Shown here in pieces: positions 55,803-64,000 of a DNA stretch of 64,000 nucleotides (within the stretch, counting starts at the first letter, position 1; each line of letters starts with the position of its first letter). The notes below the pieces were generated by a model, which worked only from the letters and a program-made list of their open reading frames with translations, made no database searches and had not been told where the DNA came from. The stretch spans positions 371,256 to 435,255 of the forward strand of contig CAVQXR010000002.1 of NCBI GenBank assembly GCA_963717955.1, read 5' to 3'. The stretch is from an uncultured Thermoleophilia bacterium. GTDB taxonomy: Bacteria > Actinomycetota > Thermoleophilia > Gaiellales > Gaiellaceae. Made by a program: the position numbers and the translations under genes.

Positions 55803-57220
55803 TCAGGCGACGACCTCGAGTCTGTCGAGCGTCGGATCCGCGCAGTAGGCGATCCGCGTGCCGTGCCCGTGCGCCTCACGGAGGGCCCGGAGCAGCTCGC
55901 CGGTGATCCGCTCACCGGGTGCGATCGCGGGGATCCCGGGAGGGTAGGGCGCGATGGTCTCGGCCGAGATCCGCCCGATCGCCGCCTCGGCGCGAACCGT
56001 CTCCCGCCGGGCGAAGTACGCTTCGCGGGGCGTCAGCGCGGTCTCCGGCTCGATGCTCCACACGGCGCTGGCTGCGGCGGGGGCGCGCGGCACACCGCGC
56101 CGCCGGCCGAGGGAGCGTTCGAGGGCTGAGACCAGACGCTCGACGGTCTCGTCCGTATCGGCGATCGTGACGAGCGGGACGATGGTGTCGCGGTTCGCAA
56201 GCTCGACGCGGATGCCCTCGGCGACGAGGTCCGCCTCGACGGCGAGCCCGTCCGCGCCCGTCGCGGCGAGCGCGATCACGAGCTTCAGCGGATCGTGGCT
56301 CACGGCGCCCGACGCGCCCGGGACGATCAGCCCATCGAGCGCGAGGAGCCGCTCCCTCGCTCCCGCCACCAGCTCGAGCGCCCTCCCGAGCAGGGGCTCG
56401 CCCTGGGAGGCGAGCAGGGCACGGGCCCGGTCGAGGCTCGCGAGCATCGCGGCCGACGGGCTCGTCGTGTGCAGGGCGTCGAACCCCTCCCGGACACGCC
56501 GCAGGTCGAGCGACCGGTCCCGGGCGAGCAGGTACGCAGTCTGCGTGAAGCCCGTCAGCGTCTTGTGGGCCGAGGTCACGAGCGCATCGGCCCCGGCGCG
56601 AGCGCGTGCGGCGGCAGCGCGGGGTGGAAGCCGAGGTAGGCGCCCCACGCCTGGTCGACGAGCAGCGGGATCCCCGCCGCGGTGCATGCGGCGGCGATCG
56701 CCGGCAGGTCGCTCAGCGCGCCGACGTAGTTCGGCTCGACGAGAAAGACGCCGCATGCGTCCGGTGCCGCGGCGATTGCCGCCTCGACCCGCGCCGTCGG
56801 GATCGAGAGCGCGAGCCCGGTCGCCGGATCGACGTCGGGCCGCACCCAGACCGGCTCGAGGCCCGCGAGCACGATCCCGGCGAGCAGCGACTTGTGGAGG
56901 TTCCTCGAGACGATCAGCCTGGCCCCGGGCTCTCCGAGCGCGAGCGCGAGCGCCTGGTTGCCCTGGGTCGAGCCGTTCAGGCAGAACAGGCACAGGTCGG
57001 CGCCCCAGAGTTCCGCCGCGAGGCGCTCGGCCTGCCCGAGGACGTCGAGCCCGAGATGGAGGTCGTCGGCGCCGGCGGAGAGGGGCAGGTCGAGGCGGAG
57101 CAGCGGGTCGGCGAGCTCGGGCGAGCGCTTGTGCCCCGGCGTCGAGAACGGGGTGATCGAGGGATCCGCGAGGAACGCGTCGACGGCATCCGCTAGGGGC
57201 GTCCGACGCTGATCCGCCGG
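55803..57220 (-). pseudogene. Orn/Lys/Arg decarboxylase-family PLP enzyme with a frameshift near 56590-56603 and no clean in-frame start
   Basis: The N-terminal part ...FSTPGHKRSPEL...CLNGSTQGNQAL...LLVDQAWGAYLGFHPALPPHALA is in the ORF 56576-57550 frame. The C-terminal part GADALVTSAHKTLTGFTQTAYLL... is in the ORF 55803-56993 frame. The nearest ATG (57189) is out of frame by one. Confidence 0.75.
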
Positions 57221-57248
57221 GGTAGGAGGGCCAGGCAGGTCCCGACCC

Positions 57249-58493
57249 CTACAGGGAGCTGCGGATGATTTCCGCGAGGTCGTCGACGCCCGCCTCGCGC
57301 GGCGACACGACGAGCAGGCGCTGCTGCTTGGAGGCGCCCTCGGCGATGGCGGGCACGTCCTCCTCCGTGTACCCGAGCTCGCGCGAGCGTCGTCGGCGCG
57401 CCGACGTCGCGCATCAGCTGCGCGAACGTGTCCGCGAGGTCGTGCGCCGCCGAGCAGCCGGGCCGCCTCGCGGTGCCGGTCGGGGGCGGCAGGCTCCGTG
57501 AAGCGGAACGCGGCCGGCGCGGTCACGGTGACCGAGAACCCGTGCGGCACGAAGGGATGGCGCGTCCGGATAGCCGGCCGGCGTCCACGCGTGCTTCAGC
57601 GACGCGATGGGGTAGGCGCAGGCGTGCGGGATGTGGACGCCCGCGCTGCCGAAGCCGACGCCGGCCGATCGTCGCGGCGAGCATCATCGCGCTTCGCGCC
57701 TCGACGTCGGAACCGTCGGCGACGGCCCGGCGCAGGTAGCGGCCGCCGGACTCGAGCGCCTGGGCGCTCCAGAGGTCGGCGATCGGGTTCGAGCCCTGGT
57801 AGGGCGGGCGCTCGTCGGGGGCCGACTTCTCGCGCGAGTCGAAGGGGCGTGCGGTGATAGGACTCGGCCGCGTGGCAGACGACGTCGAGCCCGCACGACG
57901 CGGTGACGGCCGCCGGGAGGGCTCTCGCGTGAGCAGCGGGTCGACGATCGCCGATCCGCGGGCGCAGGTAGCGGTGCGAGATCCCGGTCTTCACGCCGAG
58001 GCGGGGAAAGTCGACGATCGCGACCGACGTCGCCTCGCTGCCGGTGCCGGCGGTCGTCGGGACGGCGACGACGGGGCAGCAGCGGCCCGGGCACGCCGGC
58101 GTGCCCTCCCGATCGGCCTGTTGACGTAGTCGCAGCAGCTCGCCGCCGTGCGTCGCGAAGAGCGCCGCGATCTTCGCGGTGTCGAGCGACGAGCCGCCGC
58201 CGACGCCGACGAAGCCGTCGAACCCGCCGTCACGGGCGACGGCGATCGCGTCGAGCGACCGATTCCTCGTTCGGCTCCACGCGTGCCTTCGCATACACCT
58301 CGGTCTCGATCCCGAGCTCGCGCGATCGCGGCCCGCACGCGCTCCGTGATCCCGAGGTCGTGCGACGTGGGGGTCGCAGACGAGCATCGCCCGCGTGACA
58401 CCGAGCCGGCGCAGGTGAAAGCCCGTCTCGGTCGAGCCGCGCCGGCGCCGAACACGATCGGGGTCGCCTCGACGTGAAGACGGTCTCGTTCAC
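57249..58493 (-). pseudogene. iron-containing alcohol dehydrogenase (hydroxyacid-oxoacid transhydrogenase-like), at least 8 frame changes
   Basis: Family blocks are scattered over all three frames: VNETVF / [10 protein letters not shown] / MLVCDPHVA / [21 protein letters not shown] / GFDGFVGVGGGSSLDTAKIAA / VVAVPTTAGTGSEAT / DVVCHAAESY / PHGFSVTVTAPAAFRF / LAEIIRSSL-stop. Confidence 0.7.
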
Positions 58494-59372
58494 AGCGCCT
58501 CCTGCTCCTCCGCTCTGCCAGCGCGGACGAGGCCGAGCGAGCTCGTTCAGCTCGCCGAACTCCATCAGGTTCGGTCGAGCACCTCGCGCTCGTCCGATCG
58601 CGTCAGCAGCGTCGGTCGCGATCTCGCGGGCCGACTGCGCGGCCGCGAACAGCGTCGTCGTCGGGTAGAGCGCGATCGCGATAGCCGAGCGCCTGCCGAT
58701 CTCCTCGCGGTGAGAGCAGCGGCGTCTTGCCGTGCTCGGAGATAGTTCGCGACGAGCGGCCGGTCGACGGCTGCGGCGATCGCGCTGCATCTCGTCGACG
58801 GAGCGCGGCGCGTCGGGAAAGATGACGTCGGCGCCGGCCTCGGCGTAGGCCTGCATCCGGTCGATCGCGTCGTCGAGCCCGGTGACGGCGATCGCGTCGG
58901 TGCGGGCGATGATGACGGTGTCCGGGTTTGCGCGCGCGGCGAGCGCGGCCCGCACCTTCGTGCACCATCTCGTCGCGCGGGATGACCTGCTTGCCCTCCA
59001 TGTGGCCGCAGCGCTTGGGGAACGTCTGATCCTCGATCTGGATCGCCGCGGCGCCCGCGCGCTCGTACTCGCGCACGGTGCGGGCGACGTTCGTCGAGCT
59101 CGCCGTAGCCGGTGTCGGCGTCGGCGATCGACCGGTAGCGACACGGCGCTCGTGATCCGCGCGACGTGATCGGCTCATCTCGGTGCCGCGTCATGATCCC
59201 GATGTCCGGCAGCCCGAAGTTAGCGGCGGCGGCTCCGTAGCCGCCCGTGTAGACGCGCTCGAAGCCCGGCCTGCTCGAGGACGCGGGCGACGAGCGCGTT
59301 GTAGGCGCCGGGAACGAGGATCGTCTCGCCCCGGTCGACCAGGAGCTCGCGGAGTCGGCCGGCGGGAGTCAC
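58490..59372 (-). pseudogene. isocitrate lyase/PEP mutase family (methylisocitrate-lyase-like), multiple frameshifts
   Basis: Blocks sit in different frames: LRELLVDRGETILVPGAYNALVARVLEQAG / [10 protein letters not shown] / [33 protein letters not shown] / [36 protein letters not shown] / [12 protein letters not shown] / EEQEAL-stop. The stop overlaps the GTG of the next gene. Confidence 0.7.
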
Positions 59373-59394
59373 GATCGCACGATACGACGCGGCC

Positions 59395-60710
59395 GTGATA
59401 CAGCCAGCCGAGGCGACCGTCGTCTTCTTCCCCGAGGGGGCGTTCGGGCCGACGAACAACTGCGTCGGCATCGGCGACGTTCTGCGCCACCGCGGCCACC
59501 GCGTCGTCTTCGTCGTCGAGGAGTCGTTCGCCGGGAACCTCGAGGCGAAGGGCTTCGAGGAGCGTGTCATGCGACTCGGCCCGCCGCCGGAGGTCGAGGA
59601 GATCGCCCGGCCAGTTCTGGAAGGACTTCATCCGCGACACGGCGCCTCATTTCCGCCGCCCGACGATCGAGCAGCTCGGGCTCTTCCTGCAGCCCGACCT
59701 GGCAGGCGCTGATCGACGGTTCGAAGTACGTCAACGACCGGCTCGTCGAGATCTTCGACGAGCTCCGGCCGGACGTGATCGTCGAGGACAACGTCGTCGC
59801 GTTCCCGGCGATCTCTGCGTCCGGCAGGCCGTGGGTGCGCGATCGTGTCGTGCAACCCGCTCGAGCTGCGCGATCCGGACATGCCGCCGGTCTTCTCCGG
59901 ATACCCGATCGCGACCGCACGGGCTGGGACGACTTCCGCGAGGAGCACCGGCGGACGCACGGGGAGATGTGGGCCGACTTCGACGCGTTCGTGCGGGACC
60001 ACGGCGCGCCGGGCTCTCCCGGACCTCGAGTTCATCCACGAGTCGCCCTTCCTGAACCTCTACGTCTATCCGGACGAGGTCGACTACGAGCGGACGCGGC
60101 CGCTCGCGCCGACCTGGCATCGTCTCGAGTGCTCGGTGCGCCGCACGGACGTCCGCGTGGACGCTGCCGGAGCCGCTCGCGCAGCGGCCGGGAAGGCTCG
60201 TCTACCTCAGCCTCGGCAGCCTCGGCTCCGCCGACCTCGAGCTGATGCAGCGGCTCGTCGACTTCCTCGCGGCCCTGCCGTACCGGGTCGATCGTCAGCA
60301 AGGGCCCCCAGCACGAGCTCCTCGACCTCGCCGACAACATGGTCGGCGCGGAGTTCCTGCCGCAGACGCGCGTGCTGCCGCTGGTCGACCTCGTGATCAC
60401 CCACGGCGGCAACAACACGGCGACGGAGTGTCTCTACTTCGGCAAGCCGACGGTCGTGTCTGCCGCTGTTCTGGGATCAGTACGACAACGCGCAGCGGGT
60501 CGACGAGCTCGGGCTCGGGCGGCGGCTTTCGCACGTACGGCTGCACGGCCGACGAGCTGACCGGCGCGATCGAGCGCGCTGCTCGCCGACGGCGCGCTGC
60601 ACGACAGGCTCGGGGCAATCTCAGCCAGGGTGCAGGCGGCCCCTGGAACGGAGAGGGCCGCCGACCTGATCGAGCGCCTCGCCCGCACGGGCCGCCCCCT
60701 CGTGCGGTGA
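59395..60710 (+). pseudogene. GT1-family (MGT/UDP-glycosyltransferase-like) glycosyltransferase, multiple frameshifts
   Basis: Blocks: VVFFPEGAFGPTNNCVGIGDVLRHRGHRVVFVVEE / FWKDFIRDTAPHF / DVIVEDNVVAFPA / SCNPLELRDPDMPPVFSGYP / LEFIHESPFLNLYVYP / FLPQTRVLPLVDLVITHGGNNTATECLYFGKP. They sit in three frames. Confidence 0.7.
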
Positions 60711-61974
60711 GCGGCGGACACGCGGTCTCGCGTCGCGCGGCGGCGCTCGACCCTGCCTGGATCGGCGGGCAGCGCTGGTTCGCCGGCAAGGGGCGGCCGA
60801 TCGAGCGGATCGAGCAGGTCGCCGGGATCGAGGCTGGGGGCGGCGCACTGCTGCTGGTCGACGTGCACGCGGGCAGGGCGCCCGAGCGCTATGCGGTGCC
60901 GGTGGGGGAGGGTCTCTGGCAGGGGCTCCTCGCGATGCTCGCCGCGGGCCCGCACGACGGTTTCGAGCTCGATCGGCGGGCGGGACGCTGCCCGCGGGCC
61001 CGGAGCGGGAGCTCGGCCTCGACCAGTCGAACACGACCTACGTCCTCGACGAGCGGCTCGTGCTGAAGTGCTACCGGCGCCTGTGGCCGGGGCCTCATCC
61101 GGAGGTCGAGCTCGTCACGCACCTGACCGGGCGCTCGCGGTCGTGCCCGCGGCCCGCGGCGCCGTGCGCTACCGGGAGGCGGGCGGGCGCGAGTGGCCCG
61201 TCGCGCTGCTCCAGGACTACGTCGGGGGCGCCGAGGATGGCTGGGCGTTCGCGCAACGGTTGCTCGCCGACGCGCTCGACGGGCAGGCCGTCGCCGAAGT
61301 GCCGGCCTCGTGGGCCGTCAACCTCGGCCGCGAGACGGCGCTGCTGCACCGGGCGCTGCTCGAGCTCGGCGGACGGGCCGCCTCGCGGGCGGACGTGGAG
61401 CGCGTGGCAGGCGGCCGCGATCGCGCAGCTCGACCACGCGCTCGCGGTGGTCGATCCGCAGACGGCGACCTCGCTCCTCGAGCTGGCACCGCTCGTGCGG
61501 GACGAGCTTGCGGGCTTCGCGGGCTGCGAGGGGTCAGTCGTCTCCCGCGTGCACGGCGACCTGCACCTCGGGCAGGTGCTGCGCTCGCCGGCAGGGTTCC
61601 AGGTCGTCGACTTCGAGGGTGAGCCGACACGCCCGCCCGACGAGCGGCGGCGCTCCAGTCGCCGGTGCGCGACGTCGCCTCGATGCTCCGGTCGTTCGAC
61701 CACGCCGCCCGCTGGCTGCTGCGCGGAGCGGCCGGCGGGCGCCGCCTCGAGCTCGCGCTCGCATGGGCCGGCCGGGCCCGCTCGGGGTTTCTCGACGGCC
61801 TACGAGACGGGGCTCGGCGGTAGCTCGCTGCGGCTCGATCCCGTGCTCCTCCGCGCGTTCGAGGTGGAGAAGGAGACGTACGAGTTCGTCTACGCGGCGA
61901 GCTTCCTGCCCGAGTGGACGCCGATCGCGCTGGCGTCGATGCGCTCGCTCCTGGCATCCTCCGGGACGCCATGA
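60707..61974 (+). pseudogene. maltokinase (Mak/Pep2)-like phosphotransferase, at least 5 frameshifts
   Basis: GQRWFAGKGRPI (N-cap), LVLKCYRRLWPGPHPEVELVTHL, WPVALLQDYVGGAEDGW, SRVHGDLHLGQVL, VVDFEGEP and EVEKETYEFVYAASFLPEW occur in alternating frames. The GTGA start overlaps the GT stop. Confidence 0.7.
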
Positions 61975-62932
61975 GCACTCCCGACGCCTTCCTCACGGAC
62001 ATCCTCGCCGAGCCGGAGACGCTGGCCGGCGTGCTCGACGCCTACGGCGGGACCGGGAGCCCGCTCGACGCGCTCGGTGCGATCGGCGAGCGGCGCTTCG
62101 TCTTCGTCGGGATGGGCAGCTCGCGGTTCGCAGCGCTCGCAGCGGGCGCGCGCCTGCGGGCAGCCGGCGTCGACGCGTACGTCGAGTACGCCTCGGTAGC
62201 GCGCGTCCGCACCGGCGGCCGCCGGCACGCTGACCGTCGCGATCTCGTCGTCGGGGGAGACGCCCGAGACGGTGGAGGCCGCCGAGCGGCTACCGCGGCG
62301 CGGGCCGGCTCGTGGTGGTCACGAACCGGCCCGAGAGCCCGCTGGGTGCGGCCGCAGACGCCGTGCTCCCGCTGCTCGCCGGCAGCGAGGCCGGCGGGAT
62401 CGCCTGCCGGACCTACCAGGCGACGGTAGCGGTGCTGCTGATGCTCTGCGGCAGGTCGCCGGGGAGCCCGGGCTGCGGTGCTGCGCCCTGCCGTCGGCGC
62501 TGTCGGTGCGCCTGGTCGACTCGCGCGACGAGTGGGTGGGCCCGCGCTCGAGATGCTCGGCGGCGGCCCGGTCGACGTCGTGGCGCCCGCCGAGCGCCTG
62601 TCCTCTGCCGAGCAGTCTGCGCTGATGCTTCGCGAGGCGCCACGGATCCGCGCCGCGGCCTGCGAGACGGGCGACTGGCTGCACGTCGATCTCTACCTGA
62701 CGCGGCCGCCGGGCTACCGGGCGATCCTCTTCCCGGGCTCGCGGTTCGACGCCGGGTTCGTCGAGTGGATCGAGCGGCGCGGCTGCGCGTTCGTCTCGAT
62801 CGGACAGCCGGTGCCCGGCGCCGCGCTTCACGTGGCGTACCCGGGCGCACGGGACCGCTCGTCTCCCTGCTCGTCGAGACGACCGCGGTCGAGCTTCTCG
62901 CCGCCGAGCTCTGGCGTCGCCAGCAGGCATAG
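61971..62932 (+). pseudogene. SIS (sugar isomerase/phosphosugar-binding) domain protein, at least 3 frameshifts
   Basis: MSTPDAFLTDILAEPETL...RFVFVGMGSSRFAA is in one frame, VAISSSGETPETVEAAE in another, and VVVTNRPESPLGAAADAVLPL and SLLVETTAVELLAAELWRR in others. ATGA start overlap. Confidence 0.65.
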
Positions 62933-62999: not shown

Positions 63000-64000
63000 T
63001 TAGCCGAGTGCGGGACGCCGCTCGCCGACCCGGGTCGCCTGCTCGAACGCGTGGGCAAGCTGGAGAACGCCGAGGTCGTCCCGGTGGCGCCCGACGAGCT
63101 GGAGGCCGACGGGCAGCCCGTCCGGGGTGAATCCGGCAGGGACGGAGATCGCGGGGCAGGCCGTGACCGTGATGTCGGAGCAGCTGCGCATCCAGTCGAC
63201 GTAGGTCTCCATCTCGACGCCGCGGATCTCCCGGACCCATTCGATCTCGACGTCGAACGGCGGCACCTGAACGGTCGGGAGTGCGAGGAAGTCGACGTCC
63301 TCCATGAACCGCCGGACGCGCTCCCGCAGCGCGGCGTGCTCGCGAAGCGCCCTTGCGACGTCAGGCGCGGTGAGACGCCGTGCGAGCTCCAGGTTCCAGC
63401 GGATCGTGTCCTTGAGCGACTCAGGGTTGGCGTCGTACTCGGGGCCGAGCCCCACCTCGAACTCGACGGCCCGCAGCACCTGGAAGATCTCGCCCGCGTC
63501 CTCGAGTCTCGGGAAGCCGTCGACGACCTCGCACCGAAGCTCCTCGAGCGCCCGCCGCGCGGGGGCGAGGGCCGCGGTCACGGCGGGATCGACGGGCAGC
63601 CCGCCGGCGTCGTCGCTCCACGCGACTCTCACGCCGCGGACGGCGCGATCGAGAGGCTCGGCGAAGACGGACCCCGGCCCGGCGAGGGCGATCGGCGAGC
63701 GGGGATCCGGGCCGGCGATCGCCGAGAGCAGGAGGGCGACATCGGCGACGGTCCGCGCCATGGGCCCCTCCACGGAGAGCTCAGACCACGGCGCCTCGGT
63801 CGGCCAGACGGGCACCCGGCCGGGTGAGGGCCTGAAGCCGACCACGTTGCAGAAGGACGCGGGGTTCCGGAGCGAGCCTCCCATGTCGCTCCCGTCGGCG
63901 ATCGGGACCATCCCGCTGGCAAGCGCGGTGGCCGCACCGCCGCTCGACCCGCCGCAGGTCTTCGAGAGGTCGTAGGGGTTGCGCGTCGCGCCGAAGACCG
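63000..64000 (-). CDS. amidase-signature family amidase; N-terminal end lies beyond the window end
   Basis: The track ORF 63000-63911 continues open to base 64000: ...VFGATRNPYDLSKTCGGSSGGAATALASGMVPIADGSDMGGSLRNPASFCNVVGFRPS. Confidence 0.85.
   Translation of the reverse strand, partial: VFGATRNPYDLSKTCGGSSGGAATALASGMVPIADGSDMGGSLRNPASFCNVVGFRPSPGRVPVWPTEAPWSELSVEGPMARTVADVALLLSAIAGPDPRSPIALAGPGSVFAEPLDRAVRGVRVAWSDDAGGLPVDPAVTAALAPARRALEELRCEVVDGFPRLEDAGEIFQVLRAVEFEVGLGPEYDANPESLKDTIRWNLELARRLTAPDVARALREHAALRERVRRFMEDVDFLALPTVQVPPFDVEIEWVREIRGVEMETYVDWMRSCSDITVTACPAISVPAGFTPDGLPVGLQLVGRHRDDLGVLQLAHAFEQATRVGERRPALG

Follow-up and report, generated by a model that had tools for sequence, protein, structure and literature searches.

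Five consecutive genes in a 64,000-nucleotide stretch of DNA from an uncultured Thermoleophilia bacterium (hereafter the window) are each interrupted by several frameshifts. This raises the question of whether the genes are decaying, are recoded, or were misrendered when the genome was assembled. The source assembly, which comprises 3 contigs and 3.53 Mb and is 90% 'complete', was most likely reconstructed from a metagenome with long reads. We find that the extra bases are specific to this assembly, differ from the base beside them and fall mainly at synonymous positions, and that the read-through protein is fully conserved. The frame breaks are thus almost certainly an artefact of genome assembly rather than a property of the organism, and the genes almost certainly not pseudogenes.

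The five-gene block and its conservation

Frame breaks were identified with our own frameshift-aware protein-to-DNA dynamic programme, by which the orthologues from a genome of the same genus (G001), all of them intact, were aligned to the window; in the order of Table 1 these measure 409, 286, 434, 424 and 320 aa. Plain tblastn with the same proteins blurred the shifts, because off-frames in DNA of 71% GC stay open and align weakly. A preliminary description of this DNA had reported a shattered five-gene block requiring at least 24 frame changes; the alignment confirms the block and its position and raises the count to 45 breaks in 5.7 kb (36 of +1 nt, two of +2 nt and seven of -1 nt; Table 1). 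It also bears out the earlier statement that no substitution creates a stop, as no in-frame stop occurs in the read-through of any of the five genes. Amino acid identity of the read-throughs to the same-genus orthologues is, in the order of the table, 90, 81, 81, 62 and 81%. A frame-HMM detector placed 26 frameshift-like switches in the 57-63 kb interval of the window versus 10 in the 1-57 kb interval, or ~4.3 versus 0.18 per kb, a difference far beyond chance.

Table 1. Genes of the block, their neighbours and the extent of the error patch, in window coordinates.
Feature	Coordinates	Strand	Frame breaks	Matches and remarks
Orn/Lys/Arg decarboxylase-family gene (left flank)	55806..57223	-	one -1 nt, at ~56599	rest clean
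Iron-containing alcohol dehydrogenase (Fe-ADH) / hydroxyacid-oxoacid transhydrogenase-like	57252..58493	-	15 (12 of +1 nt, 2 of +2 nt, 1 of -1 nt)	PF00465 match on fragment; 89.7% aa identity to G001
PEP-mutase / isocitrate-lyase superfamily	58491..59372	-	9 (all +1 nt)	PF13714 match on fragment; 81.1% identity to G001
GT1-family (MGT-like) glycosyltransferase	59395..60710	+	10 (9 of +1 nt, 1 of -1 nt)	TIGR01426 MGT partial, sub-cut-off match; 81.1% identity to G001
Maltokinase / glucosamine-kinase-like kinase	60707..61974	+	5 (2 of +1 nt, 3 of -1 nt)	61.8% identity to G001
SIS-domain sugar-phosphate isomerase-like gene	61971..62932	+	6 (4 of +1 nt, 2 of -1 nt)	80.8% identity to G001; weak glmS / NagB-II isomerase domain matches
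Amidase (right flank)	63000..64000	-	0	83% identity to G001
Error patch, first to last frame break	57384..62856	.		C2:428639-434111; one of ~40 patches

In a correction to the preliminary description, the Fe-ADH and PEP-mutase-like genes lie on the minus strand. The intact operon punctuation described there stands for GTGA at 60707 and ATGA at 61971; the GTGA at 58490-58493, through which the PEP-mutase-like gene overlaps the Fe-ADH start, exists on the minus strand only (TCAC on the plus strand). Similarly, the description of clean flanks was accurate for the amidase, in which one frame runs on to window coordinate 64416, but not for the upstream neighbour, which belongs to the Orn/Lys/Arg decarboxylase family rather than being an alcohol dehydrogenase and carries a single break. 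The PEP-mutase-like gene is closest to methylisocitrate lyase PrpB, although the TIGR02317 (prpB) profile gives its orthologue in G001 318 bits, under the cut-off of 354. The kinase matches the TreS_Cterm and GlcN_kinase profiles with 195 and 174 bits, both under cut-off, and among PDB structures the maltokinases 4o7o, 5jy7 and 4u94 as well as the glucosamine kinase 6hwj.

A comparison with the syntenic region of relatives, as the preliminary description had suggested, showed that G001 carries all five orthologues uninterrupted and in synteny. In DNA alignments, the Fe-ADH insertions are missing from that genome over the whole gene and from a second genome, G012, over the first half of the gene, the part that the G012 stretch covers. 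The protein homologues listed are not truncated, measuring about 370-464 aa and mostly 405-436. Moreover, the read-through Fe-ADH retains 119 of the 120 columns that are invariant among 45 homologues; the sole deviation is a conservative I/L exchange, and the homologues themselves deviate in 0.8 of these columns on average, so that the read-through fares no worse than they do. Signs of relaxed selection were not found, either as stops in the five genes or as radical substitutions or loss of conserved residues in Fe-ADH. A sequence of the same species that would show single alleles was not found among metagenome contigs, where the best match has 77% amino acid identity, nor was a same-species protein found in a search of 5.8 billion proteins (best match 90%). 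We also considered a second, paralogous copy elsewhere in this genome, and rejected it in that no other match to the region exceeds ~100 nt.

Identity and position of the added bases

Among the 36 single-base insertions, 27 are wobble doublets, in which an unlike base stands beside the third base of a codon and dropping either base gives the same peptide. One doublet, at 58360, reads ...GCACGAC.... Random insertion yields 16.9±2.8 wobble doublets and never more than 26 across 1000 simulations. Conversely, only 7 of the 36 are compatible with homopolymer extension, against 20.1±2.8 expected from random insertion (minimum 12). When the block is pooled with a second patch, covering the hyuA/hyuB genes on contig C1 (n=71), the homopolymer-compatible events number 18, against 33.6±4.2 expected. 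The doublet pairs are mostly C/G. A stricter null, in which the complementary base is placed next to a C or G drawn at random, was applied to the same two patches; 50 of the 71 events observed there are wobble doublets, against 29.9±4.1 (maximum 42) under this null. Taken as pairs of alleles, the 71 events comprise 49 synonymous pairs, 19 conservative pairs (T/S, A/T, I/V, F/Y and similar) and 3 others, where the nulls produce ~30 synonymous pairs (maximum 45) and 12-14 others. Natural variation shaped by purifying selection would be expected to show just such a skew toward synonymous and conservative pairs.

The two +2 events have a comparable form. One consists of three unlike consecutive bases at a wobble position with 4-fold degeneracy, GC[T,C,G], and the other falls on a Glu/Asp wobble position and reads GA[G,C,C]. 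The seven -1 events had no wobble preference when tested, and several lie in short G or C runs; these may be ordinary errors.

We identified no common slippery heptamer or recurrent motif at the shift sites in the 36 event cores, the contexts of which are heterogeneous. GATC lies near 9 of the 36 events (3.7 expected, p≈0.01 uncorrected) and ATCG occurs in 11 of the event cores (4.3 expected), these being the best 4-mers at ~2.5-fold enrichment. A methylation motif was rejected as the main cause, as GATC and other 4-mers are weakly enriched and most events are left unexplained.

Recurrence across the assembly

The same signature occurs on all three contigs, in this block (C2) and in one examined patch each on C1 and C3. 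The hyuA/hyuB patch, at C1:1522.5-1526.3 kb, contains 35 +1 events, 34 of which are CG or GC, and its adjoining genes are clean. The hpaB-dioxygenase-FAH patch, at C3:16.0-19.3 kb, contains 22 +1 events, comprising 14 synonymous, 7 conservative and 1 other. Genome-wide, 822 frameshift-like switches were detected, 617 of them +1, and ~40 patches amounting to 2.0% of the genome carry 45% of the switches, at a density of 5.2 per kb versus 0.13 per kb outside. Isolated frameshifts of a like kind are also present in the window outside the block, in purL (GG[C,G]ATG) and in a GmaS-like gene (TC[T,C]GGC).

In the two patches where this was looked at, the edges lie near operon ends, which a plain two-strain model does not demand. 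Such edges may be a hint that reads were cross-recruited from a homologous cassette at another place.

Origin of the frame breaks and its consequences

The frame breaks very probably arose through the collapse of two closely related haplotypes, which we infer from the assembled sequence, into one long-read consensus that carries both alleles of many SNPs in tandem. Specifically, we hypothesize that the 5.5-kb stretch was assembled from reads of two such haplotypes, contributed by co-occurring strains or by a near-identical cassette copy of other origin. At single-base differences the consensus caller would then write both alleles consecutively rather than picking one, and each double-written site would add one base and break the reading frame. 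Likelihood- or LCS-based long-read callers may rate one substitution as less likely than two indels, such that 'CG' would fit the data better than either 'C' or 'G' where C-reads and G-reads are about equally frequent. The dominance of C/G pairs would follow from this disfavouring of substitutions. Among the candidate explanations in the preliminary description, the sequence supports the collapsed haplotype mixture, in that the extra bases act like alternative alleles at mostly synonymous sites.

Previous studies have described comparable errors in eukaryotes. In PacBio/FALCON assemblies, merging of haplotypes produced indels at heterozygous sites (Korlach et al. 2017, GigaScience, PMC5632298); as proposed here, a consensus of two haplotypes acquired spurious indels exactly at the differing nucleotides and its genes looked frameshifted, and phasing cleared the errors in that study. 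The genome concerned was that of a diploid bird, whereas the present case is a likely prokaryotic strain mixture in a probable metagenome assembly that is known through its assembled sequence. In a collapsed assembly of Trypanosoma brucei Lister 427, allelic variants likewise led to misaligned reads, INDEL errors in the long-read consensus and apparent frameshifts, and the truncated ORFs were recovered once the haplotypes were separated (Cosentino, Brink & Siegel 2021, PMC8445201). The trypanosome, a eukaryotic diploid, is heterozygous throughout its genome at 4.2 variants per kb, whereas the breaks described here are concentrated in ~40 short patches making up 2% of the genome. A further study discusses strain heterogeneity but not indels (PMC8012365).

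Ordinary long-read indel errors in a single haplotype, within a locally low-coverage or unpolished stretch (e.g. one beyond short-read polishing), would account for the isolated frameshifts throughout the assembly, for a completeness of only 90% with three contigs and for the -1 events that lie partly in short homopolymers, and uneven polishing would fit the patchiness. We nevertheless consider this explanation unlikely, as such errors should neither favour synonymous sites (27/36 vs 16.9) nor shun homopolymers (7/36 vs 20), the stricter complementary-base null is rejected as well, and the conserved residues show no excess of substitution. In long-read metagenome-assembled genomes, split genes usually stem from homopolymer indels of Nanopore assemblies (e.g. 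Sereika et al. 2022, PMC9262707), which are likewise single-base indels that fragment ORFs and lower marker-gene completeness. Those errors lie in homopolymers and genome-wide, whereas those of the block are clustered and rarely homopolymer-compatible, and insertions outnumber deletions ~3 to 1 in the present genome. The local low-quality consensus put forward in the preliminary description, with a strain-variable region as its example, was right in spirit, but plain low coverage leaves the wobble preference and the avoidance of homopolymers unexplained.

Genuine and very recent pseudogenisation, in which an insertion-prone mutation or repair process placed ~45 indels into five genes, was also among the earlier candidates. 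The deposited sequence does carry indels, and those of the patch are limited to five functionally linked genes. We regard this reading as very unlikely, as no known mutational process inserts codon-preserving bases at wobble positions, there are zero stops and no substitution load at conserved residues, and the orthologues are intact. Furthermore, the ~40 equivalent patches strike unrelated operons, isolated frameshifts strike the normally essential purL, and a viable organism with so many broken genes is implausible. Slimmer still is the chance that the tandem alleles truly lie on single molecules. In that scenario a merodiploid cell, transiently holding two diverged copies of these segments after DNA uptake, would have copied both parental bases at many mismatched sites through densely spaced template switches or aberrant mismatch repair; the genome would then hold ~40 tracts of +1 insertions too recent for any other change. 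The least probable reading is recoding, whereby the genes would be expressed by programmed frameshifting, translational bypass or RNA editing of the extra bases. Conservation of the read-through protein, as seen in Fe-ADH, is compatible with it, but no common slippery or stimulatory motif surrounds the events beyond the modest enrichment of ATCG and GATC, recoding would have to act at 45 sites in these five genes and at several hundred across the genome, and G001 encodes the same proteins in unshifted genes. Such recoding has no known bacterial precedent.

Most of the extra bases resemble the allele of a second strain and the frame breaks are almost certainly artefactual, and for this reason the Fe-ADH/PrpB-like pair and the GT1/kinase/SIS trio should be treated and annotated as intact genes rather than pseudogenes, as should the genes in the ~40 similar patches. 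The artefact skews the completeness and pseudogene statistics of the genome. More generally, the signature offers a diagnostic that needs no reads: +1 shifts that consist of unlike-base wobble pairs, either member of which can be removed, point to a collapsed mixture rather than to gene decay or homopolymer error. If the collapsed-strain reading is true, the positions of the patches would show where the two co-assembled haplotypes diverge, perhaps as recombination tracts.

Frame breaks in the five-gene block

The five adjoining genes at 57249-62932 lie in synteny with the same-genus genome G001, where each is an intact open reading frame. Ordinary tblastn hid the shifts, as off-frames remain open in GC-rich DNA, and we therefore used a custom-written, frameshift-tolerant protein-to-DNA alignment with G001 proteins as queries and the window as target. 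This alignment yielded 45 frame breaks in 5.7 kb (36 of +1 base, two of +2 and seven of -1), and no in-frame stop was met in any of the five genes when read through against the G001 proteins. The preliminary description had recognised that these genes are broken by many frameshifts, but its counts (at least 8, 4, 4, 5 and 3) were too low. Identities of the read-through genes to G001 lie within the same range as those of the clean flanks (80% and 83%). An HMM of codon position, trained on this genome and counting frameshift-like same-strand frame switches, placed 26 switches in 57-63 kb vs 10, all +1, in the first 57 kb of the window.

The flanking amidase reads clean, as described earlier, with zero frame breaks in the frameshift-tolerant alignment. 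Directly upstream of the block, the gene previously called an ADH belongs instead to the Orn/Lys/Arg decarboxylase family, and its one break (-1, ~56599) falls on the wobble base of an Ala codon or in a CC run. As both genes that meet at 58490-58493 run minus, the GTGA noted there is an overlap on the minus strand.

Genes in and beside the block (window coordinates), with frame breaks and read-through identity from alignment to G001 proteins, and larger dense patches elsewhere (C1 and C3, contigs of the assembly)
Feature	Coordinates	Strand	Frame breaks	Identity to G001
Orn/Lys/Arg decarboxylase family gene	55806-57223	minus	1	
Iron-containing alcohol dehydrogenase (Fe-ADH)	58493..57252	minus	15	90%
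PEP-mutase/methylisocitrate-lyase-like gene	59372..58491	minus	9	81%
GT1 glycosyltransferase	59395-60710	plus	10	81%
Maltokinase/glucosamine-kinase-like gene	60707-61974	plus	5	62%
SIS gene	61971-62932	plus	6	81%
Larger patch	C1:1764682-1774398			
Larger patch	C3:13845-18811			
Larger patch	C1:1522736-1525839			
Larger patch	C1:651061-656746			

The GT1, kinase and SIS genes (59395-62932) form a trio translationally coupled via GTGA and ATGA overlaps, which is kept in G001 and in another genome, G009. The kinase is akin to maltokinases (PDB 4o7o, E=5e-52) and also to actinobacterial glucosamine kinase (PDB 6hwj; NF041273 at 174 bits, under the cut-off). The PEP-mutase-like and GT1 genes are divergent (59372-59395), with predicted GTG starts 22 nt apart and uncertain placement of starts and promoters; in G001 the counterpart gap is ~157 nt between aligned blocks.

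Nature of the extra bases

By DNA alignment with G001 over the full gene and with a further genome, G012, over its first half, the Fe-ADH insertions occur in the window alone and do not lengthen homopolymers. In typical events, such as GC[A,C]GAC, GT[C,G]CTC, TA[T,C]ACC or CT[C,G]CGC, two unlike bases occupy one codon-third slot and either gives the same amino acid. When +1 events were scored by trying each possible single-base removal nearby, 27 of the 36 were synonymous wobble doublets vs 16.9±2.8 when bases were inserted at random into these genes (maximum 26 in 1000 simulations), while just 7 were homopolymer-compatible vs 20.1±2.8 expected (minimum 12). A stricter null, with the complementary base inserted beside a random C or G, gave 29.9±4.1 wobble doublets across two patches (maximum 42), vs 50 of 71 observed. 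As allele pairs, these 71 events comprise 49 synonymous, 19 conservative (T/S, A/T, I/V, F/Y, Q/H and the like) and 3 other differences; under the nulls ~30 would be synonymous and 12-14 would fall in the last class. Of the two +2 events, one places three different consecutive bases at a 4-fold degenerate wobble site, and the second, GA[G,C,C], falls where the wobble base separates Glu from Asp. The seven -1 events have no wobble preference, some lie within short runs, and they may be ordinary errors.

Judged from sequence, the extra bases follow the pattern expected from natural polymorphism under purifying selection, which is not what the mutational process of a dead gene or random sequencing error would yield. 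Moreover, the read-through Fe-ADH retains 119 of the 120 columns invariant across 45 homologues, its sole deviation being I for L (the homologues themselves average 0.8 deviations), and both single-read-quality sequence and accumulated decay are therefore excluded.

Recurrence across the assembly

The window corresponds to C2:371256-435255 of the assembly (3.53 Mb in 3 contigs, 71% GC), and the names of homologues suggest an uncultured actinobacterium of Thermoleophilia/Rubrobacter type. By the HMM the assembly contains 822 frameshift-like same-strand switches, of which 617 are +1 nt. Of all switches, 45% fall in forty dense patches that together span 2.0% of the genome (5.2 per kb vs 0.13 per kb elsewhere), and this probably explains a completeness score of 90% despite assembly into three contigs. 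Against G001 orthologues, a hyuB/hyuA patch on C1 has 35 +1 events and clean neighbours, and stops are absent; CG or GC doublets make up 34 of these events. An hpaB-dioxygenase-FAH patch on C3 has 22 +1 events (14 synonymous, 7 conservative, 1 other). Among the isolated frameshifts noted previously in the window, those in purL (15433, GG[C,G]ATG) and a GmaS-like gene (43227, TC[T,C]GGC) are of the same kind, unlike-base +1 pairs at wobble sites, while the +1 in a DMG-oxidase-like gene (32410, GAC-C-GTG) is homopolymer-compatible and ambiguous. G001, itself a 40-contig assembly, has none of these frameshifts in the three loci compared, including G001:C1:428000-442000, which ties the artefact to this assembly rather than to the lineage.

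Origin of the doublets

Reads of two closely related haplotypes were very probably collapsed into one consensus, with both alleles written in tandem at many SNPs. Few read errors are rarer than C↔G substitutions. The writing of both alleles would follow from the workings of long-read consensus callers: aligners and consensus models tuned for such reads give substitutions lower odds than indels, and reads split about evenly between C and G would then fit a 'CG' template with one deletion per read better than 'C' or 'G'. With third positions 51% C and 42% G, C↔G is also the commonest synonymous difference in this genome, and together these two properties would explain why CG and GC pairs prevail. 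Searches of metagenome contigs and the protein collection found no same-species sequence showing each allele singly. Patch edges lie near operon ends in the two patches inspected, so the second haplotype could come not from a sister strain but from a different genome in the sample that carries a homologous cassette; in both cases the result is a mixture artefact.

Plain low-coverage or unpolished sequencing error is an improbable source of the breaks, failing the tests on wobble sites and on homopolymers. Genuine pseudogenisation appears more doubtful still, as stops and substitution load are absent, the events resemble polymorphism, and implausibly many unrelated genes, purL included, would have to be broken. 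Recoding is scarcely credible: GATC is weakly enriched near events, but motif enrichment around them revealed no motif accounting for the set, and the sister genome makes do without recoding.

The frameshifts of the block are thus not a real feature but a known kind of assembly artefact. For a collapsed assembly, Cosentino et al. (PMC8445201) report INDEL errors and apparent frameshifts that arose from allelic variants. While already documented, the artefact can in this case be told from the consensus alone, and its practical worth is as a diagnostic for mixture; the five genes should not be annotated as pseudogenes.
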